64,000 nt of DNA, taken from the IMG/VR virus record IMGVR_UViG_3300032607_000125, positions 32,001 through 96,000 of that record; one strand, written 5' to 3'. Shown here piece by piece: positions 8,813 through 55,154 of the stretch. Each line of letters begins with the position of its first letter. The first letter of the stretch is position 1. Origin of the DNA: a virus. The notes beneath the pieces were generated by a model. The model was not told the origin of the DNA, did no database searches, and saw nothing but the letters and a program-made list of their open reading frames with translations. The position numbers and the translations under genes were made by a program.

Positions 8813-11800
8813 ATGGCAGATAGATACTGGGTTGGTGGAGCAGGTACGTGGGATACAACCACTACAACAGGGTGGTCTGCCACATCTGGAGGAGCGGGTG
8901 GGGCTTCTGCTCCTACGTCTGCTGATAATGCAATCTTTGATGCAAACTCTGGACTGACGGTAGGTCTTTCTGTCACCATCACTGGCGGTGTATGTGCAAA
9001 CTTAACATACACCCCAGCAACCGCCATGACCATTGGGCGTGTGAACTTTGTAATCGTTTCATCCCTTACGGTAGCAGGAACATTCTCAACTTCCGGTACA
9101 GCAGGCAATAATCGACTTAGGATCAAAAGTCTTACCCTTGGTATTGCCACTAGCTTTGTGGTGGCTACGGCGGGTTCTATTAGTGATATTGACTTTTACG
9201 AAATCATTGTTAGCGGCGCTGCTGCTCCCATATCTGGTACTCGTCTTGGTAACGTGGTTAGCGTTCAAGGCGTAACTTTTGCAGCCCCTAAAAACGTCTA
9301 TTGGAACTTAGCAGGCGCGCAAAACTGGTCAGCTAACGGCTGGGCAGCTACGTCGGGTGGAACTCCAAACACAGATTATTTCCCCTTAGTGCAGGACACA
9401 GCAGTATTTGATAATGCAGGTAGTGTCACAGGTTCTATTGCGATGGACACCGCAGCGTTCCAGTATTTTGGCAATGTTGATATGTCAGCCCGTACATCGG
9501 CTATGACATTAACTTCAAGTGGCGGTATATTTTTATTTGGGAACTGGACTAACGGCTCAGGAACAGGAGTATCAAGTCTAAGCGCAATGCAGTGGTATGG
9601 TAGAGGAACACAAACACTTATAAGCGCAGGTAAAACATGGCCTTCTGTGTTTATCGTACTAAGTTATGGTGGAACTTTTGCTCTTGGTGATGCGCTTAAT
9701 ATTGGCGCAAATGCTTTAACAGTAACCAGCGGTAATTTTGTCACCAATGGTTATGCTGTTACAGCAAGTCAAATTTCTTCTAACACAGCAGGCCCACGAT
9801 CTATTAGCCTTGGATCAAGCACCGTTACGCTATCATCTACAGGTACGCCAATTATTTTAAGTACAAATAATGGCCTTGCCTTTAATGCTGAAACGTCCAC
9901 TATTATTTTTACAGCAACTAGTTTAACTTCTATTGATATTGGGTATGCGTATTATAATGTAACTCTACCAAACTATAATACGATACTTACTTTAACTAGT
10001 TCTAATACATTTAATAATCTTATATTTAGTATTGTTATAAATTCTTTAGTTTTACAAGCAGATCAAATAATTAATGGCAATCTTTCGCTATATGGAAGTA
10101 CAAGTACAAGTAATCGAACTACTATAAAATCCAATACTCCAGGAACTAACCGAAATATAACAATTAATAGCGCAGTAACATTAACTGATATAGATTTTCA
10201 AGATATTATCATTGCGGGTATTGCGTCTCCTATTTCCGGTACTCGATTAGGAGACGTTGGAAATAACTTAGGTATTACATTTACATCCAAGACTGTTTAT
10301 TGGAATCTTGCTGGCGCGCAAAACTGGTCAGCTAACGGCTGGGCAGCTACATCAGGTGGAACGCCCTCAGTAGTTAATTTTCCTTTGACACAAGACACCG
10401 CTGTCTTTGATAACGTGGGTTCAGTTACAGGCATAATTAGTATTAATGCTGATTACACTCTACCTACAATAGATATGTCAGCTCGTACAACTGCAATGAC
10501 GCTATCTTCTACAGTAGCCGCAAGGGTGTATGGTGATTGGATAAATGGCTCTGGTATAACACTCAGTGGCACAGGTATTTTGACGTTTTCAAAACGTACC
10601 GGAACACAGACAATCACTTCTGCAGGTAAGACGTTTACATGCGGCATTACAGTCAACACGCTTACTGGAACAGTGCAATTAGAGGGTGCTTTATCATCCA
10701 ATGCTTCAGCTGGACTTACTATTACCTCCGGCACTTTTAATGCAGTTTCATATAACGTAACAACTAACGCAGTTCAAAGTGGAGGTACCATTACTAGAAC
10801 TATTAATATGGGTTCTGGGCTATGGACGCACTCTTCTTCAGGAGGTGTATGGAATGTTATAGCTACAGGTTTGACTATAAATCAAGGCACGGCTGATATT
10901 CTACTTTCAAATACTCAAACAACCGCTAAAACTTTTGCAGGTGCGGGGTTTTCATACAACAAACTAACAATTGGTGGTTCGGGAATATCCACAACTACGT
11001 TCAGTGGCGCGAACACCTTTACTGAGCTTGCCAGCACCAAGACTGTTGCACACACGGTTGCATTAAGCACCACTGCACAGACGTTTGGTAAGTGGACAAT
11101 TACAGGTACTGTTGGAAACGTCGTTACTGTTACGGGCGCAGGAAGTCACATTATTGCAGGGCCAAGAGTAGCAGGAGTAGACTACCTAGCCCTTGGTACA
11201 ACTTCATTTGTATACACCTCATCAGGGGAGTTTTATGCGGGGGTTAATTCTACTGGCACAGGTGTAGGCGTTATTTTAACAGCCGCCCCCGCAGCAGTTA
11301 CTCGGTACTGGGTTGGTGGAACGGGTGTTTTGGATATAACAACAACGACAAATTGGTCAGATACGTCTGGAGGCGTTGGCGGATTTTCAGTACCTGTTTC
11401 TGTAGATACAGTAATTTTTGACACTCTTTCAAGTTCTACCGCATACACAGTAACTTTTACTCCGGTAGGCAATAGTAACTTTCGATTTAGTAGCCTAACA
11501 ATGGGCGCACCCATGTCTGGAAATATTACATGGGCGGGTACAGCACTTATTACAGCGCATTCAGCGATAAATTTAACTGGTGGTTCATCTCGCATAACAA
11601 GAACATATACGGGAAATATTCTACTTGGCGGTGCATCCACGGGTACATTGACAACTAATGGTGTTTCTCTTGCATCAACATCAGGAATTACTTGTACGGG
11701 TATTGGTAGTAGTTGGTCATTAGAGTCGGCATTAACTTTAGCAACAAGCCCATTAACCATATCTAGAGGGTCATTTGATACTGCGGGGTACGCTCTAACT

Positions 11801-28861: not shown

Positions 28862-29452
28862 ATGGCAACCCACTATGTCAACAATGCCCAAATGCTTGAA
28901 TTTATCAAGGATTATCGGGAAAAGCTTTTAACAGCTAGAGCCAACTCTACTGAAACACCTCGCATTCCCGAATATCTTGGAGAGTGTATCCTAAAGATCG
29001 CCACCGGTCTAAGTAGGAAATCGAACTTTATCAATTACTCGTATAAAGACGATATGATTCTCGATGGAATTGAAAACTGCATTCAATGTATGCACTCCTT
29101 TGATCCAGAGAAATCTTCAAATCCATTCTCCTATTTTACTCAAGTGATCTACTTTGCTTTCCTTCGCCGTATTGCTAAAGAGAAAAAGCAATCGTATATC
29201 AAGGGTAAGCTTATTCAAGACATGGCATTTGAATCATTTGATCTACAGGGTCATGATGACGATGCAGACTTTAAGAATGCTTACACTGCATTCATTCAAG
29301 CAAATTCTAACTTTGATGATTCCTTTATAAAGAATAAAGAAAAGAAAAAGAAAGAAAAGCTTGAACAGTCACTTGCTAACTTCATTGATGAGCCAAAGTT
29401 AATTAAAGACGATAACGATCCATTCTCACTTGGTGATATTAATGACGGTTGA
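28862..29452 (+). CDS. gp55: Late-transcription sigma factor gp55
   Basis: HYVNN, IPEYLGEC.LKIA..LS...NF.NYSYKDDMI.DGIENC..FDPEKS.NPF.YFTQ..YFAFLRRI.KEKKQ. Confidence 0.96.
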   Translation: MATHYVNNAQMLEFIKDYREKLLTARANSTETPRIPEYLGECILKIATGLSRKSNFINYSYKDDMILDGIENCIQCMHSFDPEKSSNPFSYFTQVIYFAFLRRIAKEKKQSYIKGKLIQDMAFESFDLQGHDDDADFKNAYTAFIQANSNFDDSFIKNKEKKKKEKLEQSLANFIDEPKLIKDDNDPFSLGDINDG

Positions 29453-36434: not shown

Positions 36435-36767
36435 ATGAAAAGCAAACCAATACTTACACCGGCAGGTCGCAAATTTGATGGTGGTAAACTTCGCTATGGA
36501 CTAATACCTCCTCTTGCACAACAAGAAATGGTAAAAGTTCTTACGTTTGGTGCAGAAAAGTATGAACCTGATAATTGGAAATATGTTGAAGGTTCTATCA
36601 CTCGCTATTTTGATGCCATGGAACGACATGTTTGGGCATGGAAAATGGGCGAAGAGTTAGATCCAGAAAGTGGAATCCACCACTTGGCCCACGCAATGTG
36701 TTGCCTTGCATTCCTCTATGAACATGATGTGAAATATACAAAGAAAGAACCAAATGGAATTAAGTAA
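36435..36767 (+). CDS. dATP/dGTP diphosphohydrolase-like protein (DUF5664)
   Basis: G.KFDGGK.RY.LIP...V.TFGAEKY...NW...RY.DA..RH..AW..GEE.DPESG..HLAHA.C.L.FL. Confidence 0.85.
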   Translation: MKSKPILTPAGRKFDGGKLRYGLIPPLAQQEMVKVLTFGAEKYEPDNWKYVEGSITRYFDAMERHVWAWKMGEELDPESGIHHLAHAMCCLAFLYEHDVKYTKKEPNGIK

Positions 36768-37410
36768 AGAAACCCTGTCGTTGATCAAGAACTTCGCTGG
36801 CATTAATGGCAGTCTGATGCTTAAGCAGGGAAATAAGTTGTCCACAATCTCAGAAGGAAAGAACATCATGGCAGAAGTGTCAATTGATGAAGACTTTCCA
36901 ATGGATTTTGGAATTTACGATTTGAATGAATTCCTAAATGTCGTATCGCTGTTCCCAAGCACTCAACTTGACTTCAATGAGAAGTATGTCATGGTGTCTG
37001 ATGGTGGTACCAGCAAGATTAAATACTTTGCTGCAGGTGATGGTGTTGTTAAATCCGCGCCTTCTACGATTAAGTTTCCACAAGCCGATGTTGAGTTTAC
37101 AATTGATGCAGCTCAACTGGCAATGATTCTTAAAACCTCTTCAGCATTGAAGGCAAGTGACTTGTCTATTGTTGGTGACGGAAGTACTCTTAAAGTTCTA
37201 GTGTCTGATAAAAAGAATGATACTTCGAATGCATATGAAGTTACTATTGGCAAGACCAATGAAACCTTTAAAGCTAATCTTAAAGTAGAAAATCTTAAGA
37301 TGCTTCCCGGCGACTACGAAGTTTCTATCTCTAAAAAGAAAATCTCCCGCTTTAAAAGCACTACTGATCTCACATACTTTGTCGCTGTTGAAGCTGACTC
37401 GGAGTTCTAA
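36754..37410 (+). CDS. gp45: Sliding clamp gp45
   Basis: LS.ETL..IKNFA.IN.S, FP.DFGIYDLNEFL, K.ENLK.LPG.Y.V; synteny. Confidence 0.95.
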   Translation: MELSKETLSLIKNFAGINGSLMLKQGNKLSTISEGKNIMAEVSIDEDFPMDFGIYDLNEFLNVVSLFPSTQLDFNEKYVMVSDGGTSKIKYFAAGDGVVKSAPSTIKFPQADVEFTIDAAQLAMILKTSSALKASDLSIVGDGSTLKVLVSDKKNDTSNAYEVTIGKTNETFKANLKVENLKMLPGDYEVSISKKKISRFKSTTDLTYFVAVEADSEF

Positions 37411-40983: not shown

Positions 40984-43518
40984 ATGCGATTTTATACATC
41001 TATTAATAGATACGGAAATAACTTATTGTACCGTGGATACGAAGATGGAGTGCGCGTTAAGAAAAAAATTCCATTTAAGCCTACGCTTTATGTTAAAGGC
41101 AAAGGCAAGTCTAAGTATAATGCATTGGATGGTACTAATGTAGATCCAATCAAACTCGGCTCAATGCGTGAAGCTAAAGAGTTTGTTGAGAAGTACGACA
41201 GCATTGAAAATTTTACCATTTATGGTAACACTAATTACATCGCTCAATTCATTGCGGAAGAATTCCCCGGTGACATTAAGTTTGATCGTAGCAAGATTCG
41301 AGTTCATACACTTGACATCGAAGTAGCATCTAATGAGGGTTTCCCTGAGCCAGATGTAGCACTTCACACAGTAACAGCAATTGGTATTAAAGATAGTGTT
41401 CTAAACGTTTACTTTGTTTGGGCTCTAGGCGACTATGACACGACCAAAGCAATCATGAAAGATTGCCAAATTCGCTATACGAAATGTAAAGATGAAGCAA
41501 CACTATTAAAGTCTTTCATTGCATTCTGGCATGATGAATTCTTATGTCCTGATGTAGTGACAGGATGGAATATTCGCACCTTTGATATTCCATATCTCGT
41601 TAATCGTATCAATCGAATTCTTGGTGAAGATGATGCTAAAAAGCTTTCACCGTGGGGAATGGTTGAAGCTAAGATGGTCACAATGCGTAAAGGCTTGGTT
41701 CAAGTTTATGAAATTACTGGTATTGCTCAGCTTGATTATCTTGATCTATTCCAAAAGTTTGGGTATTCCTTTGGTCCACAAGAATCATACAAACTTGATC
41801 ACATTGCGTATGTAGTGCTTGGTGAAAAGAAACTAGATTATGACGGTACTCTATATAGTCTTTATCTAACAGATCACCAAAAGTTTATTGATTACAACAT
41901 CAAAGACGTATGGCTTGTTGATCGCATGGAAGATAAGATTGCAATGATTACGCTGTGTTTGACTATGGCCTATAAAGCCGGTGTTAATTACTCGGATACA
42001 ATGGGCACTGTTGCAATTTGGGATGCATTGATTCATAGAACTCTGATGGCCGATAACATCATCATTCCGCCGAATAAGAATAGTTTTAAAACTGATTATG
42101 AAGGTGGATATGTTAAAGATCCACAGTGTGGAGTCCATGATTGGGTTGCTTCTTTTGACGTTAACTCGCTTTACCCAAACATCATTGTGCAATGGAATAT
42201 GAGTCCAGAAACTATTCTTAAAGGTGATGTTGAACGCAACGTTAATGTTGACACTTGTCTTAGTGGTCTTTTGAACACAACTGAAAAGTCTATGGCTGGA
42301 ACTGGTCAATACTTCTCAAAGCATAAGCAAGGATTCATGCCAAAGATCATTGAAGAAATGTATGAAGAACGAGTTGTCATTAAAAAGAAAATGATTGAGT
42401 CTAAGAAAGAACTTGAGGTATGTGATCGTACTGATAAAGTAGAAGTATATCGCATTGAACGTGACATTGCTCACTTTGAAAATCAACAAACTGCTATCAA
42501 GATTCTATTGAATTCATTGTATGGCGCTCTTGGCAATAAGTACTTCCGTTACTTTACGATGGAGATTGCAGAAGGTATTACTATCTCTGGCCAATTGATT
42601 ATTAAGTGGGGTGAGAAGTACATCAATAAGTATCTCAATGATATGCTTAAGACTAACAAAGATTATGTTATTGCAATCGATACTGATTCGATCTATGTAA
42701 GTCTTAATGATCTTGTTAATAAAGTTTATAGTGTTGATGGTATGGTTTCATCTGAGTTTCCCAAAGATAAAATTGTAGATTTTCTTAGTAGAGTTTGTAC
42801 TAAGATTGAAGCTGATGTATTTGACCGATGCTTTAAAGAACTTGGCGAAAACATGAATGTGTACAAACCTCGTATCACAATGAAACGAGAAAGCATTGCA
42901 GACCGTGCAATCTGGTCTGCAAAGAAACGATACATTCTAAATGTATTAGATAATGAAGGAGTTCGATATGCGCAACCGAAACTTAAAATCATGGGTATTG
43001 AGGCGATCAAATCGTCTACGCCGGCAACGTGTCGCAAGGCTTTTAAAGAGTTGTTTCAAGTGCTCATTAGCGGCACGGAAGCACAAACTCAGAGCTTTAT
43101 TCAAGATTTCCAAAAAAGATTCGATGCTTTACCAGCGGAAGACAAAGCATTCCCGCGTGGTGTATCGTCGCTTAAGAAGTATAGTGACCCAAAGCTAATC
43201 TATAAGAAAGGTACTCCAATCAATTCACGAGCATCACTATTGTATAATAACATGCTTAAATTGCATAAGTTAGAAAACAAGTATGAAGCTATTAAAGAAG
43301 GTGAAAAGATCAAGTACATTTATCTTAACCCTAGGAACCCTATGCGTGAAGATGTTATTGCATTTACTAGCATTCTGCCTCCTGAGTTTGGTCTACATCG
43401 CTTTATTGACAATACAACACAATTTGAAAAAGCTTTTCTCGATCCTGCAAAGATAATCATTACTTCTATTGGTTGGAAGGCGGCAGAGGAAGCATCACTT
43501 GAGGATTTCTTTAGTTGA
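40984..43518 (+). CDS. gp43: DNA polymerase gp43 (family B)
   Basis: Exo DIEV, GWN..FD.PY, YN..D; Pol SFDVNSLYP, KI.LNS.YGA.G, DTDS, KKRY; C-terminal SLEDFF. Confidence 0.98.
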   Translation: MRFYTSINRYGNNLLYRGYEDGVRVKKKIPFKPTLYVKGKGKSKYNALDGTNVDPIKLGSMREAKEFVEKYDSIENFTIYGNTNYIAQFIAEEFPGDIKFDRSKIRVHTLDIEVASNEGFPEPDVALHTVTAIGIKDSVLNVYFVWALGDYDTTKAIMKDCQIRYTKCKDEATLLKSFIAFWHDEFLCPDVVTGWNIRTFDIPYLVNRINRILGEDDAKKLSPWGMVEAKMVTMRKGLVQVYEITGIAQLDYLDLFQKFGYSFGPQESYKLDHIAYVVLGEKKLDYDGTLYSLYLTDHQKFIDYNIKDVWLVDRMEDKIAMITLCLTMAYKAGVNYSDTMGTVAIWDALIHRTLMADNIIIPPNKNSFKTDYEGGYVKDPQCGVHDWVASFDVNSLYPNIIVQWNMSPETILKGDVERNVNVDTCLSGLLNTTEKSMAGTGQYFSKHKQGFMPKIIEEMYEERVVIKKKMIESKKELEVCDRTDKVEVYRIERDIAHFENQQTAIKILLNSLYGALGNKYFRYFTMEIAEGITISGQLIIKWGEKYINKYLNDMLKTNKDYVIAIDTDSIYVSLNDLVNKVYSVDGMVSSEFPKDKIVDFLSRVCTKIEADVFDRCFKELGENMNVYKPRITMKRESIADRAIWSAKKRYILNVLDNEGVRYAQPKLKIMGIEAIKSSTPATCRKAFKELFQVLISGTEAQTQSFIQDFQKRFDALPAEDKAFPRGVSSLKKYSDPKLIYKKGTPINSRASLLYNNMLKLHKLENKYEAIKEGEKIKYIYLNPRNPMREDVIAFTSILPPEFGLHRFIDNTTQFEKAFLDPAKIIITSIGWKAAEEASLEDFFS

Positions 43519-44090
43519 AAAATCTATCAGATTATATCAAAGTTTATGATGATGTATTTACAAAAGATTTTTGTTCATCGCTGATTACTAAATTTGAAAC
43601 GTTGGATAGTACTACTAGTCCTTCACTGAGATTGTCAGATCATTCTTGGGATAAAGATTATAGACGTTTCATGGAAGTCAACATAAAACAAGATCCAGCA
43701 TTTACAGATTTAATAGATCCATATTATGCTCGCATTCAGGAAGTTTACGCGCATTATAAACAGATGGTAGGCGGCGAATTCTTTCCATCTAAATTCTCAC
43801 TTGAAGAAGCAAGAATGAAGAGGTATTTAAACGACGACTACGAGCAGTTTGGTTGGCATGTCGACATCGGAGATAAGGCTTCGGCTAGTAGATATTTAGT
43901 TATGTTTACTTATCTGAATGACGTAGAGGATGGTGGGGAGACTGAGTTTAAGTCTAATTCAAATTTTACTGTTAAACCTAAATGTGGTAGAATTGTAGTA
44001 TTCCCTCCTTATTTTATGTTTGAACATCGAGGCAGAAAACCAATCAGCAATAACAAATATATCTTGTCTACATACTTACACTACGCATAA
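43515..44090 (+). CDS. 2OG-Fe(II) oxygenase (prolyl-4-hydroxylase-like)
   Basis: WHVD (HxD), YLNDV..GGET.F, G...FPP....HRG...KY; TTG start overlapping the gp43 stop. Confidence 0.88.
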   Translation: MKNLSDYIKVYDDVFTKDFCSSLITKFETLDSTTSPSLRLSDHSWDKDYRRFMEVNIKQDPAFTDLIDPYYARIQEVYAHYKQMVGGEFFPSKFSLEEARMKRYLNDDYEQFGWHVDIGDKASASRYLVMFTYLNDVEDGGETEFKSNSNFTVKPKCGRIVVFPPYFMFEHRGRKPISNNKYILSTYLHYA

Positions 44091-45187: not shown

Positions 45188-45539
45188 GGTTTTAGGTAAG
45201 ACTTCTCCCACTGGTGAACTTCATGCCTTGTCGTTCACTAGTGGAGAATTTGCTGATATTATATTCTCATACACTGATGTCAAGTTTATTGAACACGATG
45301 ATGCTTTAACTATTGCATTTGAGTATCATTTGCATGACGTACCTCATCACTTAAAAGACTTCAATACAGAAGTTTTTGAAAAAGAACTTGGTGATTTTAT
45401 AACAGCGTTACTCTACTATGGTATTGAACGCGACAAAATGGGATTTATTGATGGCGAACAGAATAGAGAAGACGATTCTTTCGAATCTGATGCACAACGA
45501 AGCGTACTGCCGGAAGGTAGTGCCATTCCTAAAGACTGA
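45156..45539 (+). CDS. Probable head-vertex assembly chaperone (gp40-like)
   Basis: uvsX-X-gp41 synteny; I.FSY..V.F...L.F.Y...F....GD pattern. Confidence 0.6.
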   Translation: MQKTTPLRPHRVLGKTSPTGELHALSFTSGEFADIIFSYTDVKFIEHDDALTIAFEYHLHDVPHHLKDFNTEVFEKELGDFITALLYYGIERDKMGFIDGEQNREDDSFESDAQRSVLPEGSAIPKD

Positions 45540-46086
45540 GTATTTCTCAGATCAATTTGAGAAAGTTGTTGCTCAAGAGTTAGTAGCGTTCTTCACTGAA
45601 TATAATAAGCCAGCATCACTTGAAATCCTTGCGATTCAACTCGGCAATCGCAAGGATCTTCGTGGTGAACAACTTGCTCAGGTTGAAAGCTACATCAATG
45701 AACTGACATTCAAAACTGATAACGATGAATGGTTGTATAAACACACTGAGGCTTTTTGTAAGAAGCAAGCGGTGTATAATGCAATCATTGATTCGTTTGA
45801 AATCATTGAAGGCAAAGACAAAGTTCGCAGTGAAGATGCTATTCCTTCCATGCTATCAGAAGCTCTTGCGGTTTCATTTGATGCATCGGTTGGCCATGAT
45901 TATCTTGAAGACTTTGAAGAACGATACGACTTCTATAATCGTACTGAAGAGAAACTAGAATTTGATCTAGATCTATTCAATAAAATTACAAAGGGTGGTC
46001 TATCGAAGAAGACTCTGAATGTTATTCTCGCAGGCTGCGTTCATCCAGATACTTTAGTTAGAGTGCGATTTAAGAAGAAAGCGTAA
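45451..46086 (+). CDS. gp41: Replicative helicase gp41, N-terminal fragment (195-aa extein plus 16-aa IntN)
   Basis: IEKTIL.NL..NE.Y.RKV.PFLK.EYF, AL.V.FD..VGHDY, TKGGL..KTLNVILAG then CVHPDTLVRVRFKKKA stop. Confidence 0.93.
   Translation: MANRIEKTILSNLMHNEAYCRKVVPFLKTEYFSDQFEKVVAQELVAFFTEYNKPASLEILAIQLGNRKDLRGEQLAQVESYINELTFKTDNDEWLYKHTEAFCKKQAVYNAIIDSFEIIEGKDKVRSEDAIPSMLSEALAVSFDASVGHDYLEDFEERYDFYNRTEEKLEFDLDLFNKITKGGLSKKTLNVILAGCVHPDTLVRVRFKKKA
46036..46083 (+). mobile_element. Split intein N-fragment (IntN, 16 aa)
   Basis: Cys1 block A CVHPDTLV immediately after Walker A ...ILAG; basic tail RVRFKKKA. Confidence 0.9.
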
Positions 46087-46693
46087 ATCCTAATCTATAT
46101 CCATTAGACAAGAATTCGTTTAATCTTTCTTGACGAATTCTTGTTCTGTGTTTTCCATTTGTTACACAAATCATACCTATTAATGATTTTCCTCCAAGAG
46201 AAGCGTATTCAGATCTTTTTTCTTTATTGAAAATTGCAATTCCAGCTTTCATTTGTGATTGTGCGCCAATTTTACCACCTAATGATGCATGTTCTTTAAA
46301 TTTGTCTGGATTGTGAATACCAATCATATTCTTGATTTGCGTGGCTGCACCCATACGCCGCCATTCATTTCGTTCTTCTAAAGACTTTGAGAAAAATCCA
46401 ATGTCATTATCTCTGCAATATTCACCAGTTATTTTGCGCTGATGCGATGTTAAATTTGCACCGAGCATATACATAGCCCTTAAATCATTTGGAGATTTAT
46501 AAATTTTCCATAGTAAATAATGCGCAATAATGTGTTCTCTTATTGTCAAATATGTAAAATTAGAAATGTCATCAGTTCCACCAGCATGTTTAGGAATAAT
46601 ATGGTGCCTATGTAAATTAGAACTAGGTTTCCATTCATTTATGATTGTACTTTTACTCATACATAGATTATAATAAACTTTATCGTAGAACAT
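46070..46693 (-). mobile_element. Antisense free-standing HNH homing endonuclease between the intein halves
   Basis: HRHHIIPKHAGGTDD..N.TYLT.REH..AH.LL; AGGAGA RBS on the minus strand; C-terminal TNG...R.....EFL..GYRLG. Confidence 0.9.
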
Positions 46694-46737: not shown

Positions 46738-46753
46738 CTCTAAATTGAAAAAT

Positions 46754-47125
46754 ATGACTTGGATCACAAAAGAAATAAAAATAAATGACATTGAGTCTAT
46801 GCTAGAAGACTATGATGTTGAAGTAGATTCTCCAGATGGGTTTGTCCCAGTATCTCTATTTGTTGATAAGGGAGAATGGGACGAGTTTAAGTTGACAATG
46901 CTGGATGGTCGCACTATTCACGTCAACGAAAATCATCTATTTGAAACCGACTCAGGTTGGCAGTATGCTAAAGATTTAGTTGATACTGGTGTTAATACAT
47001 ATATTAGCGATACTGGCACTTCACTTGGTATTTTGACAAAAACTGGAAATCGTATTCCCATTGTTGATATTCAGGTAGAACACGAGAATCATAGGTATTA
47101 TACTAATGGAGTATCATCGCATAAT
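46754..47125 (+). mobile_element. Split intein C-fragment (IntC, about 124 aa)
   Basis: VDSPDGF, block B VNENHLF, block F VDIQV, block G NHRYYTNGVSSHN followed by Thr+1 (TGVGKS). Confidence 0.92.
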
Positions 47126-47932
47126 ACTGGCGTGGGCAAGAGTTTGTTCATGTGTCACGTCGCCGCTGGCGCTTTAATGCAAGGTAAGAACGTACTGTAT
47201 ATTACAATGGAAATGGCAGAAGAACGTATCGCTGAACGTATCGATGCTAACTTGCTTAACATGACAATGGAAGAACTTAGTAAAGTTACTAAGGACATCT
47301 ACGAGACTCGTCTTGGCAAGTTGATCAAGAAAACTGCTGGTAAGTTAATCGTTAAGGAATACCCCACAGCAGCAGCTCACTCTGGACACTTTAAAGCATT
47401 GCTTGAAGAGTTGAAGATGAAACGTAACTTCATGCCAGACTTAATCGTTATTGATTATCTAAACATCTGTTCTTCTGCTCGTATGAAAGCCGGTGCTGGA
47501 GTTAATTCATACACCTTCATTAAGTCTATTGCAGAAGAACTTCGTGGTCTAGCCGTTGAGTATAATGTACCAATCCTTAGTGCAACTCAAACTACTCGTA
47601 GTGGATTTGGTAATACCGATGTTGGACTAGAAGATACTTCTGAATCATTTGGTCTTCCAGCAACTACTGACTTTATGTTTGCGTTAATCTCCACTGAAGA
47701 ACTTGAGAATCTTAATCAGATCATGGTTAAACAACTTAAGAATCGTTATAATGATGTGAACTATTATAAACGATTCGTTATTGGTGTTGATAGATCTAGA
47801 ATGAAATTATATGATGTTGAAGAATCAGCGCAGAAGAATATATCTGATGCTGGTCAAGATGATGGCCCTGCCTTTGATAAGACTTCATTTGGTAAAAGGA
47901 TGAAAAGTGCCGGTGACGGGTTTACATTTTAA
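46754..47932 (+). CDS. gp41: Replicative helicase gp41, C-terminal fragment (IntC plus 268-aa extein)
   Basis: After HN: TGVGKSLFMCH, YITMEMAEE.IAERIDAN, IDYLNI, LRGLA, SATQTTRSG, SESFGLPAT.D, KQLKNRY. Confidence 0.95.
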   Translation: MTWITKEIKINDIESMLEDYDVEVDSPDGFVPVSLFVDKGEWDEFKLTMLDGRTIHVNENHLFETDSGWQYAKDLVDTGVNTYISDTGTSLGILTKTGNRIPIVDIQVEHENHRYYTNGVSSHNTGVGKSLFMCHVAAGALMQGKNVLYITMEMAEERIAERIDANLLNMTMEELSKVTKDIYETRLGKLIKKTAGKLIVKEYPTAAAHSGHFKALLEELKMKRNFMPDLIVIDYLNICSSARMKAGAGVNSYTFIKSIAEELRGLAVEYNVPILSATQTTRSGFGNTDVGLEDTSESFGLPATTDFMFALISTEELENLNQIMVKQLKNRYNDVNYYKRFVIGVDRSRMKLYDVEESAQKNISDAGQDDGPAFDKTSFGKRMKSAGDGFTF

Positions 47933-47965: not shown

Positions 47966-48367
47966 ATGTCAACTAATTGGGTAAAAGACATGCAGGATAT
48001 GCATGCAAAATTTGGTGTTAACACCGTGATTCGTGGATTGGATAAAGCAAAGCTTGCTGCATTCATTCAATTTCGCATTAAGTTCTTGCAAGAAGAACTA
48101 GATGAAATGATCGTATCAGACAATGGTGATGATACAGTTGATGCATTGATTGATCTTTGTGTGGTTGCTATTGGAACACTTGATGCGCTAGATGTTAACG
48201 CATATACTGCTTGGGATCGAGTGCTAACAGCAAATATGACAAAAGAAATCGGTATTAAAGCGAGTAGACCTAATCCACTGGGATTACCAGACTTGATTAA
48301 ACCAGAAGGTTGGATTGCTCCAAGTCACGCTGATAATGTTGGATTGCTAAGTAAGGTACAAAAGTAA
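47966..48367 (+). CDS. MazG-like / all-alpha NTP pyrophosphohydrolase
   Basis: R..F..EE..E......D..DALID...V..G...V..ANM.K...RP...DLIKPEGW..P. Confidence 0.8.
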   Translation: MSTNWVKDMQDMHAKFGVNTVIRGLDKAKLAAFIQFRIKFLQEELDEMIVSDNGDDTVDALIDLCVVAIGTLDALDVNAYTAWDRVLTANMTKEIGIKASRPNPLGLPDLIKPEGWIAPSHADNVGLLSKVQK

Positions 48368-49610: not shown

Positions 49611-50041
49611 CTAATCAAGAAACGCTTGGCACTATAGGTGAGATCTATTATCAAGCTATCTTTGGCGGTCTTCTTTCCGAATACAAGTATGATGGCAATA
49701 AAGACCTCGTGCAAGTAGATGGGCTTCAAGTCGAAATAAAAACACAGAGCCGCTTACGTGGTTCTAATGCGTTCACTGTTAATAAAGCAAATGCGAACAA
49801 CTTAAAGAAATGTTTGTATGTTGATAGATTAATTTTTATAGAATATAGCCTTAGTGATATAATAATTATATACGAATGCACTGATCGTAGAAGTGTATTT
49901 GGCACCCTTACAGCTGATGGCCGAAACATGGCATGCTGGCCTATCAATCAAATGCAAGTTCTTAAAAAAGTAAAACACCCAAAACTCGCAGAAATCATGC
50001 GCAACTTCTCTAACTCTGAAACTCTAGGACATTTTGAATGA
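49607..50041 (+). CDS. Putative PD-(D/E)xK nuclease
   Basis: G.IGE.....D..KD.....VEIKTQ motif arrangement. Confidence 0.55.
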   Translation: MTNQETLGTIGEIYYQAIFGGLLSEYKYDGNKDLVQVDGLQVEIKTQSRLRGSNAFTVNKANANNLKKCLYVDRLIFIEYSLSDIIIIYECTDRRSVFGTLTADGRNMACWPINQMQVLKKVKHPKLAEIMRNFSNSETLGHFE

Positions 50042-50511
50042 AAGAAAATCAATACTCACGCGAATCAGCAAACATTCTCCTTGAAGCTGCAAAACTTCAA
50101 GAATCGAAAGGCCGTGATTATAACAACGCAGTATCCAGCGTCCAGCAAGCAGATTACTATCCACGTGGCGTGTATTCTATTCTAGACATTGTGAATGCAA
50201 AATATCTTCGTATGGTTTCAGTTCTCGAGACTATGGAACACGGTGGTAAAGTTAATTTTGAATCCGTTGAAGATTCCGCGATTGATCTTATTAACTATGC
50301 ATCATTTGTAGTTGCATATATTCGTGGTGAAGTTCCAGGCCAATTGACTAACAAAGATATCTTCAATAAAACCATGAGTAAAGAAACTCATCCAACTAAT
50401 TCACTGACTCCAAACAAGTTTAAAGCAACGCGCTTAGAATCAACTCCTATTGACGTTGATTGGGCTAATGCAAAAACTGGAACAGTTCGTGCTCAATTTA
50501 ACGATCGTTGA
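50038..50511 (+). CDS. Nucleotide-modification-associated all-alpha protein (Nmad1/DUF1599-like)
   Basis: A...Q..KG.DY....R...E...DS..DLINYA motif. Confidence 0.65.
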   Translation: MKENQYSRESANILLEAAKLQESKGRDYNNAVSSVQQADYYPRGVYSILDIVNAKYLRMVSVLETMEHGGKVNFESVEDSAIDLINYASFVVAYIRGEVPGQLTNKDIFNKTMSKETHPTNSLTPNKFKATRLESTPIDVDWANAKTGTVRAQFNDR

Positions 50512-50512
50512 T

Positions 50513-51232
50513 ATGAATACTGTACATGATATTCGACAAAAGCTTGCCACGCTTTACAAAAAAGGCGAGTTTGTAACTGATAAGTCTGGTGTAAAAACTG
50601 TTGAGATTATGAATGCAAACTTCATGGCCACATCACCTCTTATCTTTGGCGCTGTCAATGAAGACTATGTTCAGCGTGAACTAGCATGGTATAACTCTGA
50701 ATCATTGAATGTTAATGATATTCCCGGTGGACCTCCAGCAATCTGGAAACAGGTCGGCGATAAAGACGGGTTTATTAATAGTAACTATGGTTGGTGCGTC
50801 TATTCCGCTGATAACAACTATCAGTTTGATCACGTTGTAACTGAACTTGAAGAACGCCCTGATTCCCGTCGTGCCATTATGATCTACACTCGTCCTACGA
50901 TGTGGGGTGATCATAATAAGAATGGTCGTTCAGACTTCATGTGTACCAACACAGTTCAATACATGGTGCGTGATAATAACGTACATGCTATTGTTAACAT
51001 GCGTTCCAATGATGCATGGGCTGGATATCGCAATGACTACGCATGGCAAATGCATACATTGATTGCTGTAGCAAAATCGCTTAACTCTCGTGGTAAAGAT
51101 TATTTGCTTGGTGATATTTACTGGAGCGCTGGGTCACTTCACATTTATGAACGTCAGTTCTATTTGATTGACAACTATATCAAAACTGGTGACTTATCTA
51201 TCTCTAAAGAAGAATATGACAAATTGGTCTAA
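50513..51232 (+). CDS. gp42: dCMP hydroxymethylase-like thymidylate-synthase homologue (gp42-like); ATG 50513 preferred
   Basis: DSRRA, catalytic DFMCT, MRSNDAWAGYRNDYAWQ with Asp at the Asn177-equivalent (D169+8) position, GSLHIYE. Confidence 0.8.
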   Translation: MNTVHDIRQKLATLYKKGEFVTDKSGVKTVEIMNANFMATSPLIFGAVNEDYVQRELAWYNSESLNVNDIPGGPPAIWKQVGDKDGFINSNYGWCVYSADNNYQFDHVVTELEERPDSRRAIMIYTRPTMWGDHNKNGRSDFMCTNTVQYMVRDNNVHAIVNMRSNDAWAGYRNDYAWQMHTLIAVAKSLNSRGKDYLLGDIYWSAGSLHIYERQFYLIDNYIKTGDLSISKEEYDKLV

Positions 51233-51659
51233 ACGATATCTCAGCTTAGCAAAAGAAGTTTCTACTTGGAGTAAAGATCCTAGTAGAAAAATTGGTGCTA
51301 TCGCTGTAGGATCTAAAGGTCAGATTTTATCTCAAGGCTATAATGGATTCCCTCGTGGAATTGATGATACTCTTGAAAGATATAATGACCGTGAAACAAA
51401 GTATAAATACGTCGTCCACGCAGAAATGAATGTAATTTATAATGCAACGTTTAATGGGGTATCCTTAGACGGAGCTTCATTGTACGTGTATGGGCTTCCA
51501 GTTTGCTCCGAGTGTGCTAAAGGTATTATCCAAGTTGGTATAAAGAACGTCATCATCTTCACTGATGACGTGGTTCCAGAAATTTGGACTAAAATGTATA
51601 ATTTGTCGTGGAGTATGTTTATAGAAAGTGGCGTTCAATGTGAATGGATTCATGACTAA
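51216..51659 (+). CDS. cd: dCMP deaminase (ATG 51216 preferred)
   Basis: SKDPS.KIGA, GYNG.PRG, HAE.N, PVCSECAK zinc motifs. Confidence 0.92.
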   Translation: MTNWSKRYLSLAKEVSTWSKDPSRKIGAIAVGSKGQILSQGYNGFPRGIDDTLERYNDRETKYKYVVHAEMNVIYNATFNGVSLDGASLYVYGLPVCSECAKGIIQVGIKNVIIFTDDVVPEIWTKMYNLSWSMFIESGVQCEWIHD

Positions 51660-51789
51660 CGAAGAAGTTTTAAAATTTTATGATGAATTGGTTGAACACT
51701 ATGGCGATGAACTAGTTGACTTTGAACACTGCCCAATTACATTCGCTCATCAAATTAAATTATACAAATATTATAAGGTGACTACATGA
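51652..51789 (+). CDS. Small hypothetical protein (45 aa); not in ORF track
   Basis: MTNEEVLKFYDELVEHYGDELVDFEHCPITFAHQIKLYKYYKVTT; overlaps both neighbours. Confidence 0.6.
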   Translation: MTNEEVLKFYDELVEHYGDELVDFEHCPITFAHQIKLYKYYKVTT

Positions 51790-52991
51790 AAATAGCAATC
51801 ATCATGGGCCGTGGCATTGAAGGCTGTGGCGTAACTAAATTTACCGTTGAGCAAACTAAATGGTTTGCAAAGAATGGTCATGAATTTACTGTGTTCTCTT
51901 CTAAAGATAAGTCATGGACTCGTAAGAACGCGCATGATGTGTCAAACGTTGTTCAACTTAAATTTGCAAAACCAGAAGAAACTGATAAACTCATTGCGGG
52001 TTGTAATGCCGCCGATGTTGTTATTATCAATAGTCTACCATCGATAGGTCATTCTGAAGACTGTATCACTCAATTTAAACGAGCATTAAATGAAATCACT
52101 AAACCAATTGTTCTTATTCAACATGACCATTCTGCGCTATCAATTCGTCGTAATGCTGCAATCAATGAGTCTATTGGAAAAGCTAGTGTGCTCTTTGGCC
52201 ATAGTTCTACTAATGATTTCGCTCGTATCGTTGAGTCTTCAACTGGTGGCGGTGGTTTAGCAGGGTTTTTCGGTGAAGATAATTCTAAGAGTATTCTAAA
52301 CTTTCAACCAGGCATGGACTTTGATTCTGTTCGTGCTAAGTATTGGTTGCCCATCGAACAGACTAATCCTATAATGAATAAATGGGTTGGACGTACTACT
52401 TCTTGGAAAGGTTACGTTCAGATGTTTAAATTCCACAATGAATTTTTACGTCCAGGTGGATATATCACAACCTTTGAAGGTATTGAAAAGTCACCAGCAT
52501 ACTTAGCATTCCGTGAGTTGTCTGAATTTAATCCTCATATCAATGATAAAATTACAGATATTGCATTAAAGACTAATGAACCTGCATATGTATTTGGACC
52601 ATACATTAATCATGAAATGCTTCAACGTATGGCACTATGCGGATTTGGTTATCAACTATCTGCATTGGATGGACGATACATTGAACGATCAATTGAGTAT
52701 ACTCATTGTGAGGTTGCGTGTACTGGCGTAGTTCCTGTATTTCGTAAGGCTTATGGCGAACGTTGTACTCATCGATCACTTGGCGATAAACTAATTAATT
52801 GCAAAGACACCGGTACAATTTGGCTTGATGATAATAACATGCAGCCTGCGTATGAACTACTAAATAAGTTGGCCAAGGATGATATCATGAGAAACGAATA
52901 TCGTGAAATGGCATTTGAATTTTATAAACAACATCAAGATTCTCAACATACCTTTGATGAGATGATGGTACAAATCGAAAATAACTTATGA
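51786..52991 (+). CDS. agt: DNA alpha-glucosyltransferase (T4 AGT-like)
   Basis: M.RGIEGCGVTKF..EQ..WF.KNGHE, QHDHS.LS.RRN, NFQP.MD...VR..YW, W.GRTT.WKG, EYTH.E...G..PVF, HQDS: recalled to match T4 AGT along its length. Confidence 0.88.
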   Translation: MKIAIIMGRGIEGCGVTKFTVEQTKWFAKNGHEFTVFSSKDKSWTRKNAHDVSNVVQLKFAKPEETDKLIAGCNAADVVIINSLPSIGHSEDCITQFKRALNEITKPIVLIQHDHSALSIRRNAAINESIGKASVLFGHSSTNDFARIVESSTGGGGLAGFFGEDNSKSILNFQPGMDFDSVRAKYWLPIEQTNPIMNKWVGRTTSWKGYVQMFKFHNEFLRPGGYITTFEGIEKSPAYLAFRELSEFNPHINDKITDIALKTNEPAYVFGPYINHEMLQRMALCGFGYQLSALDGRYIERSIEYTHCEVACTGVVPVFRKAYGERCTHRSLGDKLINCKDTGTIWLDDNNMQPAYELLNKLAKDDIMRNEYREMAFEFYKQHQDSQHTFDEMMVQIENNL

Positions 52992-54175
52992 CCTTTAAAC
53001 ATGCAAGTATAGTTCCACTAATTGGTGGCGAAACACTTGGTCAAATGGCAGCATTTGGAACTAAACCAGATTACCTACTTTCATATTCACCATTTAGTAG
53101 TAACGATTCACATCTTGTTAATCACTTAAAGGATGTTCCATATATCTTACTTGATCAGGGTGGAACTCATCCTCATTACGTAGATGTTGTTAATGCAGTT
53201 TGTCCATGCGCAGGATTATCTTCATTGTCTCCATCTGCAAATTCTGACTCAGCCGTTAACGATTGGTTGACAACTACTGCTAAGTATGTACTAGAAGAAA
53301 TGAAACCAAAAGTTTTGTGGGGTGAAAATGCACCACGATTTGCCGGTGCAATGGGTAAACCAATCGTAGATAAACTTCATAAGCTTGCAAGCGACAATGG
53401 TTATACAATGTCAATCTATCGTACTAAGTCACTATTGCACGGCCTTAGTCAAGTTCGTGAACGTTCATTCTATTTCTTTTGGCAAGGTACAACCATTCCA
53501 ATCTTTAATTACTTTGATCGCCCAAATAAAAAGATTGAAGATCTTCTAACTGAAGTGCCAAAAGACGCTACTCAGAACGAAGTTACAAATAAAAGAATCC
53601 CATCAAAAGATGATCCTTATTATCGTTATGTGCTAGAAGAACTTGAAGGCGGTATCACCCACGCAGAGTTTGCTTCTAAGATCAATCTGTCATATGACAT
53701 TCTTAATTACATTGAATCTAAGACTAACTATCTAGAGGTTAAGAAGTGGGCTGAAAAACAAGGTCTCACTAAAATGGCAGCTAAGTGCCAGGTGATGCAT
53801 GACAAACTCGCCGCTGGTGGTAACATCATGAGACGTTCTTCTTATGTTCCAAAGAACTATAGCGGTGCATTCGTTGGACACCTTCCCATGAGTATGACTC
53901 ATCCTGTAGAAGATAGGTATCTAACATATCGTGAATGTATGGCAATGATGGGATTGCCAAATGACTTTGAATTGTTAAGTCCTGCTAAGAATCTAAACCA
54001 CATTTGTCAGAACGTACCAGTTGGAACTGCTACTGATATGGCTATGGAAGTTAAAGCATCGTTGGAGGGTAAGCGTGATAGAGTGAATGCTTCATTGCTT
54101 TATCAGTTTAACAACAATAAGACATATGAGATTCGAGACACTGAACCTATACAAAGTCTAGAAGAATTCTTCTAA
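52988..54175 (+). CDS. Divergent C5-cytosine DNA methyltransferase-like protein
   Basis: Motif IV CPCAGLS, motif VI GENAP, motif VIII Q.R.R.F, motifs IX-X LT.REC...MGLP.DF and QNVP; atypical motif I (PLIGG). Confidence 0.75.
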   Translation: MTFKHASIVPLIGGETLGQMAAFGTKPDYLLSYSPFSSNDSHLVNHLKDVPYILLDQGGTHPHYVDVVNAVCPCAGLSSLSPSANSDSAVNDWLTTTAKYVLEEMKPKVLWGENAPRFAGAMGKPIVDKLHKLASDNGYTMSIYRTKSLLHGLSQVRERSFYFFWQGTTIPIFNYFDRPNKKIEDLLTEVPKDATQNEVTNKRIPSKDDPYYRYVLEELEGGITHAEFASKINLSYDILNYIESKTNYLEVKKWAEKQGLTKMAAKCQVMHDKLAAGGNIMRRSSYVPKNYSGAFVGHLPMSMTHPVEDRYLTYRECMAMMGLPNDFELLSPAKNLNHICQNVPVGTATDMAMEVKASLEGKRDRVNASLLYQFNNNKTYEIRDTEPIQSLEEFF

Positions 54176-54177
54176 TA

Positions 54178-54196
54178 AAATGCCCTTCGGGCATTT
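54178..54196 (+). terminator. Hairpin terminator (possibly bidirectional)
   Basis: AAATGCCC-TTC-GGGCATTT. Confidence 0.7.
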
Positions 54197-54242: not shown

Positions 54243-55154
54243 ATGACGGCGAATACGATACTATCAGACATTAACGAACTATATACTGGATATGTGTTGA
54301 ATGGCAACAAATGGTATGACAGTGAAGCTCAACGCCAATATAATATTCGTGTAGGTCAAGCGCAACCAGATGAAGTTGCAGATGCAATTGGTAAAGCTAA
54401 AGTCATGGCCGAAGAGTTTTTAAAATGGGCTAAAGCTAATAAGTATTCTAACAATGTAAAAGGTGTATGGTGGACAGCTAGACCGGGATCTATGAGTTCT
54501 GCATTTGGTTCGCCAGTTGATCAAAAAAAGAATCCAACAGATATTTTAGTGCAGTTTACTTCTGGTCCAATTAATGGATTTTTAGGATTATCCGCAAAAG
54601 CTACTAAAGGCAGTGGCGATATTGGATTTAAGAATCCAGGTCTTGGCACAGTAGATAGAAATCTAGGACTTAAATTAGCAGATGAATACGCTAATCAGAG
54701 CAAACAAACTATTGTTAAATTTGCTTTGCCAGAAGCGGCACAGGCTCGTAAAGAATATATTCGTAAGAATCCTGGTATTAAAAAACACACAGAAGCGATT
54801 GGTTCTAGTATATTATCTGCAATGAGAGATGAGATGTTAGTAAGATTAAATAAGTTTAATCAAAAAGATCTTATGAAGTATCTATTGACTGATTGGATGG
54901 ATGCTGATATAGTATCTCCTCCATATGTTAAAGTTACTGGTCAAGGCAATAAGCAACCATATAAAGCAGTAGTAATGGATCCAACAGATAATGAGAAACT
55001 TAATGCATTATCTAAATATACAATTACATTAGAAAAAGTAGGTAATGAATCTATTGGTGTTAAAGCTGGCGCTAAAAAGATAATGAAGATTCGATTTAAA
55101 TTTGAATCCGAAAAGATGGCTTCTTCTGTTAAATTGTCTGGTGATCCTTGGTGA
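54243..55154 (+). CDS. Hypothetical protein, possible restriction-like nuclease fold
   Basis: NE.Y.G near the N-term, NPTDIL...GLSAK (PD...SxK variant), FKN.G. Confidence 0.55.
   Translation: MTANTILSDINELYTGYVLNGNKWYDSEAQRQYNIRVGQAQPDEVADAIGKAKVMAEEFLKWAKANKYSNNVKGVWWTARPGSMSSAFGSPVDQKKNPTDILVQFTSGPINGFLGLSAKATKGSGDIGFKNPGLGTVDRNLGLKLADEYANQSKQTIVKFALPEAAQARKEYIRKNPGIKKHTEAIGSSILSAMRDEMLVRLNKFNQKDLMKYLLTDWMDADIVSPPYVKVTGQGNKQPYKAVVMDPTDNEKLNALSKYTITLEKVGNESIGVKAGAKKIMKIRFKFESEKMASSVKLSGDPW

Follow-up and report, generated by a model that had tools for sequence, protein, structure and literature searches.

We analyzed a window of 64,000 nucleotides, bases 32001-96000 of a 130-kb IMG/VR viral contig (IMGVR_UViG_3300032607_000125, about 80% complete), which carries a gene for an enzyme resembling DNA cytosine-C5 methyltransferases (hereafter MT) that ends in a short peptide shared with the DNA polymerase of the same phage. 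The contig comes from a T4-like marine myophage, with a polymerase that shares 46-49% identity with those of cyanomyophages, and the window holds replication genes in T4 order: gp55, gp45, gp44, gp62, regA, gp43, uvsX, a split gp41 and a primase. The features that concern the shared peptide are:

52988..54175, + strand: C5-methyltransferase-like enzyme (MT) of the 'PLIGG' subfamily, 395 aa (PF00145, E 2e-15)
54155..54172, + strand: C-terminal peptide SLEEFF, putative gp45-docking tail of MT, identified by reading the sequence and by orthologue conservation
43495..43515, + strand: C-terminal tail SLEDFFS of the polymerase (gp43 ends ...EEASLEDFFS)
29369..29386, + strand: gp55 motif SLANFI, residues 170-175 of 196, lying 21 residues before the end and not at the extreme tail
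36754..37410, + strand: gp45 sliding clamp, the presumed docking partner (phrog_223, E 1.1e-71); gp44, gp62 and regA come next, the T4 arrangement
40984..43518, + strand: gp43 DNA polymerase, 844 aa (phrog_262, E 1.6e-301)
28862-29452: gp55 late sigma factor, 196 aa (phrog_234, E 2.5e-55)

MT reads ...EPIQSLEEFF and then stops, so that the endings given in the initial annotation, IQSLEEFF for MT and ASLEDFFS for gp43, are both present in the sequence. The same annotation had set SLANFI of gp55 beside them as a weaker form: the motif is there and corresponds by homology to the clamp motif of T4 gp55, but it is internal here. In a complete relative (G006; 166,832 bp, a proteome of 52,936 aa, MT 73% identical), gp55 reads TSLENFLQEEPKDE, and the motif of a relative's gp55 is SLENFL and stands seven residues short of the C-terminus. 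In the T4 record itself, gp43 ends KASLDFLFG and gp55 ends PSLDFLYEAND, and it is through these C-terminal peptides that the two T4 proteins bind gp45 (PMC9690074). A strict core, [ST][LI][ED].F[FLMI], occurs twice in the predicted proteome of 40,470 aa, at the C-termini of the polymerase and MT, against approximately 0.008 C-terminal matches expected by chance; relaxing it to [ST][LI]..F[FLMI] gives four occurrences (gp55, the polymerase, MT and one internal site). The strict core is found in G006 in gp55, the polymerase, MT and one spurious 45-aa open reading frame (ORF). The motif shared by the tails of MT and the polymerase is not a product of chance.

The tail is also conserved, a point that the initial annotation had proposed to check. 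Among 118 full-length MT orthologues (68-91% identity), Phe at position -2 is present in 118/118, Leu at -5 in 116/118, Ser or Thr at -6 in 110/118 and Glu or Asp at -4 in 108/118, while the five linker positions preceding the motif are variable, with entropies of 2.1-3.3 bits. Viral loci down to 51% identity keep the tail (SSLEGFFS, DTLEAFFG, VQLDQFMI, NTIEAYFS), and the polymerases on the contigs of these loci end in [AS][ST]LE[DA]FF[SGTAV]. These alignments indicate that the motif is under selection and is common to MT and the cognate polymerase.

The tails further co-vary by lineage. In other T4-type lineages tails of the LE[ED]FF(x) kind are shared: MT ends in NLEEFFA, SLEEFMS or TLEEFLV, the upstream GT-B glycosyltransferase in ATLEDFFG or GLEEFFG, and the polymerase in NTIEDFFS or TLDDFFG. 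In a lineage with a split family-B polymerase, the polymerase ends in YTTSLF, MT in KV[KN]S[VI][IF], the glycosyltransferase in ATSLF or NNKLF, and two unknown proteins in SSVF and IRKLF. In a third lineage, from uncultured phages, MT ends in KSK[NV]LF, and AGT-like, GT-B and GT25 glycosyltransferases end in AKSLF, STKLF and NKQLF; here two ECF-type sigma factors end in NQNKLF and ETNELF (L079:2417-3025 and L082:2156-2755), a possible counterpart, beyond the T4-like phages, of the gp55-gp45 coupling of T4. Neighboring ORFs ending in [LV]F number 29/279 in loci with x[LV]F tails versus 0/236 elsewhere (Fisher p 1e-8). A polymerase, sigma factors, glycosyltransferases and MT with a common lineage-specific tail form the pattern expected of the clients of one hub, and for the T4-type lineages that hub is, by homology with T4, gp45. 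In form, the x[LV]F tails are similar to QL[SD]LF, the beta-clamp motif of bacteria.

The conserved tail, the presence of the same motif on gp43 and gp55 and the co-variation across lineages make gp45 docking well supported by comparison, and we consider it likely that MT docks on the gp45 clamp. One result weighs against extending this to all lineages: neither gp45-type (PF09116, phrog_223) nor beta-type (PF00712) clamps were found in four partial genomes of non-T4 lineages (45-84% complete). The replisome-tethered cytosine modifier proposed at the outset, by analogy with DNMT1-PCNA, is the best-supported reading, with strong comparative evidence behind the tether.

A similar ending occurs on a 237-aa T4_baseplate protein (PF12322; phrog_150, 'baseplate hub') encoded upstream of the window (L002:10310-11020, - strand; 10307-11020 of the genome), which ends in GLESFF. 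Its orthologues end in GLDSFF (G006:143127-143840) and GINAFFS (L103:19746-20459), so that this tail is kept across two T4-type lineages.

Known clamp clients are thus not the only carriers of the motif, and MT might instead be an ordinary orphan anti-restriction C5-methylase whose tail serves oligomerization, another partner or stability and merely resembles that of the polymerase. Orphan C5-methylases are common in phages, and the baseplate endings show such a tail in another setting. We nevertheless regard this as the least probable of the explanations considered here: the motif recurs on gp43 and gp55, and the T4 versions of both proteins use it to bind gp45, the number of C-terminal matches expected by chance is far below one, and the class of tail switches together with the polymerase, glycosyltransferase and sigma factor tails from lineage to lineage.

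MT comes last in a set of base-modification genes:

50038-50511: MazG-like or Nmad1-like ORF
50450..51232, + strand: gp42 dCMP hydroxymethylase (E 4.1e-88 to T4 gp42, PDB 1b49), with the catalytic Cys and Asp179 (RNDYAW) kept
51168..51659, + strand: dCMP deaminase (cd; PF00383, E 7.5e-19; phrog_174, E 2.3e-43)
51786..52991, + strand: DNA alpha-glucosyltransferase (AGT; PF11440, E 8e-93; 9.7e-109 to T4 a-gt)
54178..54196, + strand: terminator-like hairpin immediately behind the stop codon of MT, with 8 pairs, a TTC loop and a T-rich tail

The stop codon of AGT overlaps the start of MT (ATGA), and the hairpin right behind MT suggests that AGT-MT closes the transcription unit. This gene order is seen again in 41 viral loci. 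When AGT served as the query, which leaves the count unbiased towards MT, MT directly follows AGT in 31/32 loci with room downstream. An exact T4 late-promoter-like TATAAATA lies at 51402-51409, inside the dCMP deaminase gene and approximately 380 nt upstream of AGT; across the window this sequence is not enriched (9 found versus 7.3 expected). Downstream, a 303-aa ORF (54243-55154) occupies a variable slot between MT and a DUF6267 gene; it has no match in Pfam, PHROGs or NCBIfam, and only a subset of the related loci have it, at 80-85% identity.

AGT carries no docking tail in this clade, and T4 alpha-glucosyltransferase, but not beta-glucosyltransferase, co-purifies with gp45 (Sommer 2004; reconfirmed in PMC13216743). 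Together with the gene overlap, this could mean that MT acts as an adaptor, binding or flipping 5-hydroxymethylcytosine (hmC) while its tail brings the tail-less AGT to the clamp, with its own catalysis secondary. We find such a role very improbable. In other T4-type lineages both the glycosyltransferase and MT have the tail, which makes an adaptor needless there, and the complete or near-complete invariance of the catalytic Cys, Glu and Arg residues across 125 diverse family members argues for catalysis.

Those residues belong to the following motifs of MT, with conservation counted over the same 125 members of the PLIGG family:

53009..53029, + strand: variant motif I, I-V-P-L-I-G-G, residues 8-14 (P10 and G13 invariant; L11 and G14 in >=98%)
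53204..53209, + strand: motif IV, P73-C74 (catalytic Cys), followed by Ala75 where Gln is canonical (C74 in 124/125; aligns to PCQ of M.HaeIII)
53324..53335, + strand: motif VI, E113-N114-A115-P116, canonically ENV (E113 invariant, N114 in 123/125, A115 in 121/125; aligns to ENV of HaeIII)
53450..53464, + strand: motif VIII, Q155-V-R157-E-R159 (R157 and R159 invariant, Q155 in 122/125)
54008..54019, + strand: motif X, Q341-N342-V-P, in which Asn is the equivalent of HhaI N304 (Q in 123/125, N in 121/125; aligned to the HaeIII motif X region)

The AlphaFold2 model of MT, built with 125 relatives, has a pLDDT of 95.9 and a pTM of 0.93, falling to a pLDDT of 72-78 over the last ~15 residues. Foldseek matches it to M.HhaI, DNMT1 and MET1 at E ~1e-13, the best small match being M.HhaI (E 7e-14, TMt 0.70), and on this model MT is a class I methyltransferase fold with a C5-methyltransferase small domain. 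The PF00145 match begins at residue 62, the N-terminal 40-60 residues lie outside the Pfam and PDB profile matches, and against the NCBIfam dcm model MT scores 28.6 bits, below the cut-off of 100.65. As the initial annotation had noted, motif I is atypical while PC, EN and QxRxR are intact: motif I reads S-I-V-P-L-I-G-G in place of the canonical FxGxGG, with V9-P10-L11 opposite F-A-G of E. coli Dcm in hhalign. To judge from these residues, the catalytic apparatus for attack at C6 is intact.

A full HMMER scan returned 745 representatives of the PLIGG family at E<1e-3, which have in common an N-terminal [IV][IV]PL[IV]GG, invariant E113, R157 and R159, and near-invariant C74, N114, Q341 and N342. 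Scanning 185,579 species genomes gave only 16 loci, all on contigs of metagenome-assembled genomes, so that the family looks virus-only, and by sequence PLIGG looks like a separate branch within the fold of DNA cytosine-C5 methyltransferases. The single MT protein had no phmmer match among PDB sequences, whereas the family profile did match PDB entries. Against cultured phages, megablast gave no match, and tblastn recovered only relatives at ~30%, in S-TIM5-type cyanophages, in Pseudoalteromonas phage XG4 and in Bacillus phage G.

Members of the subfamily sit in thymidylate-synthase-type cytosine-modification modules of several phage lineages. Around distant family members, counted as 32 non-redundant clusters, the commonest neighbors are thymidylate-synthase homologues (14), NDP-sugar epimerases (13) and glycosyltransferases (12+5), followed by dUTPase/DCD-like proteins (9), dCMP deaminases (7) and nucleotidyltransferases (6), and a glycosyltransferase is usually immediately upstream of MT. 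The cultured cyanophage S-TIM54 has a tail-less MT homologue beside a thymidylate-synthase homologue with Asp at the dCMP-specificity position. Some phages carry two tandem PLIGG paralogues (L052:11184-12404 and L079:10001-11197), both with x[LV]F tails.

The explanation that we favor, and consider reasonably likely overall, is that a clamp-docked PLIGG enzyme caps residual cytosine in nascent DNA. The gene would encode a catalytically competent enzyme of the PLIGG branch of the C5-methyltransferase fold and, closing a glucosyl-hmC module (MazG-like, gp42, cd, AGT, MT), would be translated together with the alpha-glucosyltransferase. Its flexible C-terminal peptide, [ST]-L-[ED]-x-F-[FLMI], would copy the clamp-binding motif of the polymerase and gp55 and allow MT to dock on gp45 clamps loaded on, or remaining on, freshly replicated DNA. 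There it would flip out a cytosine-type base, whose C6 would be attacked by Cys74 with the aid of Glu113, Arg157 and Arg159. The likeliest substrate would be cytosine that has escaped hmC replacement, methylated with S-adenosylmethionine (SAM) or otherwise capped at C5, so that no bare cytosine would be left in nascent phage DNA.

Two observations bear on bare cytosine as the substrate. By phmmer, neither the contig nor the complete G006 has a match to T4 gp1 (dNMP kinase), gp56 (dCTPase) or beta-gt, although conservation of gp42 and alpha-glucosyltransferase is high; with these T4-type proteins undetected, replacement of cytosine by hmC may be less complete than in T4 and leave bare cytosine as a substrate. 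MazG-like proteins (ORFs 47966-48367 and 50038-50511) may be candidates for a replacement of gp56. In addition, a distant family member (P0206, 598 aa) carries a zf-CXXC domain as a C-terminal fusion (PF02008, E 6.6e-07), a domain that in eukaryotes reads unmodified CpG; the fusion is a weak hint at bare cytosine as the target.

Several points weigh against this account. The first is the puzzle, already raised in the initial annotation, that C5 positions already fully hydroxymethylated would leave MT no substrate: the puzzle is real, since gp42 is bona fide and should replace cytosine with hmC before replication, and little substrate for a C5 methylase may remain. Moreover, canonical SAM contacts are altered family-wide: the motif I Phe is Val or Ile, its first Gly is Leu (L11) in 124/125 members, and strand beta2 (residues 30-32) is followed by S32-Y33-S34 and appears to lack the terminal Glu of motif II, which binds the SAM ribose, with a near-invariant N39-[DE]40 one helical turn on. 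Two pocket residues are smaller than canonical, Ala75 for Gln (A106/S15/G4 at this position across the family) and Ala115 for Val, and in M.HhaI the Q82A substitution lowers methylation ~16-fold and favors bulkier transferable groups (PMC3526304). Finally, MT is tightly coupled to a glycosyltransferase in every lineage, which points to a function within the glycosylation pathway and not to a backup methylase.

These points could be reconciled if MT were clamp-docked but did not methylate bare cytosine with SAM, acting instead on hmC or its glucoside, or adding a non-methyl one-carbon unit from a non-SAM donor. The Cys-C6 adduct might exchange or elaborate the C5 substituent, or residual cytosine might be hydroxymethylated for the glucosyltransferase to finish. 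The apparent loss of three canonical SAM contacts, the additional space that the two Ala residues would give near C5 and the transferable group, the preference of Q82A for bulkier groups, the intact gp42, the obligate adjacency to a glycosyltransferase and the association with dCMP-specific thymidylate-synthase homologues in several lineages all fit such chemistry. We hold it to be possible but doubtful: Asn342 of motif X, a conserved Asp56 and Asp/Glu40 could still hold SAM, and a partner enzyme for a new donor is not recognized in the cluster. We also know of no natural enzyme of the C5-methyltransferase fold with such a reaction. Our order of preference is SAM-dependent capping of residual cytosine, then a non-canonical reaction (on hmC or with another donor), and finally an adaptor or non-clamp role.

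Carboxy-SAM, which had been suggested as a donor at the outset, is rejected specifically. CmoX is defined by an SPPC motif and an Arg at the HhaI N304 position, with CmoA as its partner (PMC12783734). MT has V-C-P-C in place of SPPC and Asn342 (Q-N342-V-P) in place of Arg, and no CmoA (TIGR00740) was found in the contig (G000) or the complete G006, while control genomes gave matches.

A bolder version of the non-SAM chemistry, which we think unlikely, is that PLIGG enzymes are not methyltransferases but a new class of clamp-riding cytosine-C5 enzymes that finish hypermodification on nascent DNA, with the whole toolkit clamp-tailed; for instance, the neighboring glycosyltransferase might be supplied by an enzyme that turns stray cytosine directly into 5-hydroxymethylcytosine or swaps the C5 substituent of hmC. 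If this were true, tails for clamp docking, specific to each lineage, would be present in diverse phages on the modification enzymes (MT and no fewer than three families of glycosyltransferases) as well as on polymerases and sigma factors, which would couple base hypermodification to the replication fork.

The proposed capping of residual cytosine by a clamp-docked MT can be set beside known systems. Like the gp45 clients of T4 and RB69 (gp43 and, for late transcription, gp55 and gp33), the proteins described here bear, behind a flexible linker, a short peptide of acidic and hydrophobic residues that lies at the C-terminus or close to it, reading SLDFLF/Y in T4 and SLE[DE]FF in the present phage, and as in T4 there is a gp45 gene and the order 45-44-62-regA-43. 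The difference is that the putative client is a DNA base-modifying enzyme. The co-purification of T4 alpha-glucosyltransferase with gp45 establishes clamp-coupled modification of hmC DNA in principle: there, too, an hmC-pathway enzyme is coupled to the sliding clamp and would modify DNA during replication. The T4 client is however the alpha-glucosyltransferase itself, with an undefined docking motif, whereas here its co-translated neighbor carries the tail; again unlike T4, the glycosyltransferases of other lineages carry explicit tails. In DNMT1-PCNA, a C5-methyltransferase-fold enzyme is likewise recruited to nascent DNA via a clamp-binding peptide, putative in our case, but the clamp families are unrelated in sequence, the PIP box of DNMT1 is N-terminal whereas the tail here is C-terminal, the genomic context here is hmC replacement, and nothing in our data points to a reading of hemimethylation.

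Among enzymes of the same fold, MT resembles canonical C5-methyltransferases (M.HhaI, M.HaeIII, Dcm; PF00145) in its overall architecture and in motifs IV, VI, VIII and X, and differs from them in having PLIGG for FxGxGG, PCA for PCQ, ENA for ENV and, apparently, no Glu of motif II closing strand beta2. CmoX of Synechococcus phage S-B43 (PDB 8yf3), the second-best PDB profile match of the MT family (E 1e-14), is likewise a phage protein with this fold and a non-standard role; besides the differences in motif, motif X residue and partner given above, the neighborhood here is a thymidylate-synthase homologue and a glycosyltransferase. A post-replicative phage pathway combining a C5-methyltransferase, a TET enzyme (5mYOX) and a glycosyltransferase was reportedly described by Burke et al. 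in 2021. As in that pathway, a C5-methyltransferase here adjoins DNA glycosyltransferases in phage hypermodification clusters, but gp42 supplies the 5-hydroxymethyl group before replication, and a search for Tet_JBP (PF12851) in the contig and G006 gave no match, the control search being equally silent. The only 2-oxoglutarate oxygenase of the window (43515-44090) belongs to PF13640 and not to Tet_JBP.

Clamp-coupled DNA methylation is a textbook mechanism in eukaryotes (DNMT1-PCNA). To our knowledge, among phages only T4 alpha-glucosyltransferase has been linked to a clamp, through no defined motif, and neither a methylase-like gp45 client nor a DNA base-modifying one recruited by a docking peptide has been described. 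In the papers that we searched, clamp-binding tails are not described for any phage methyltransferase or glycosyltransferase. Clamp coupling is thus a known principle, and what would be new here is its use by an uncharacterized enzyme subfamily that looks virus-only, for which the window supplies an explicit, conserved, putative docking peptide on a DNA-modifying enzyme. Because glycosyltransferases, sigma factors and polymerases of several uncultured lineages carry lineage-specific tails, clamp-coupled hypermodification is testable with peptides. MT, a C5-methylase-like enzyme, is obligately paired with DNA glycosyltransferases in phages that already replace cytosine with hmC, and its cofactor pocket departs from every characterized C5-methyltransferase. 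Such an enzyme could represent a new DNA-modifying activity and a useful tool for biotechnology.

Two further features accompany the replication genes of the window. Directly upstream of gp45, a 110-aa protein (36435-36767) matches PF18909, the N-terminal domain of dATP/dGTP diphosphohydrolases (E 9.5e-34). The gp41 helicase is split into two ORFs (45418-46086 and 46745-47932), between which a homing/HNH endonuclease gene lies on the opposite strand (46070-46693, - strand).

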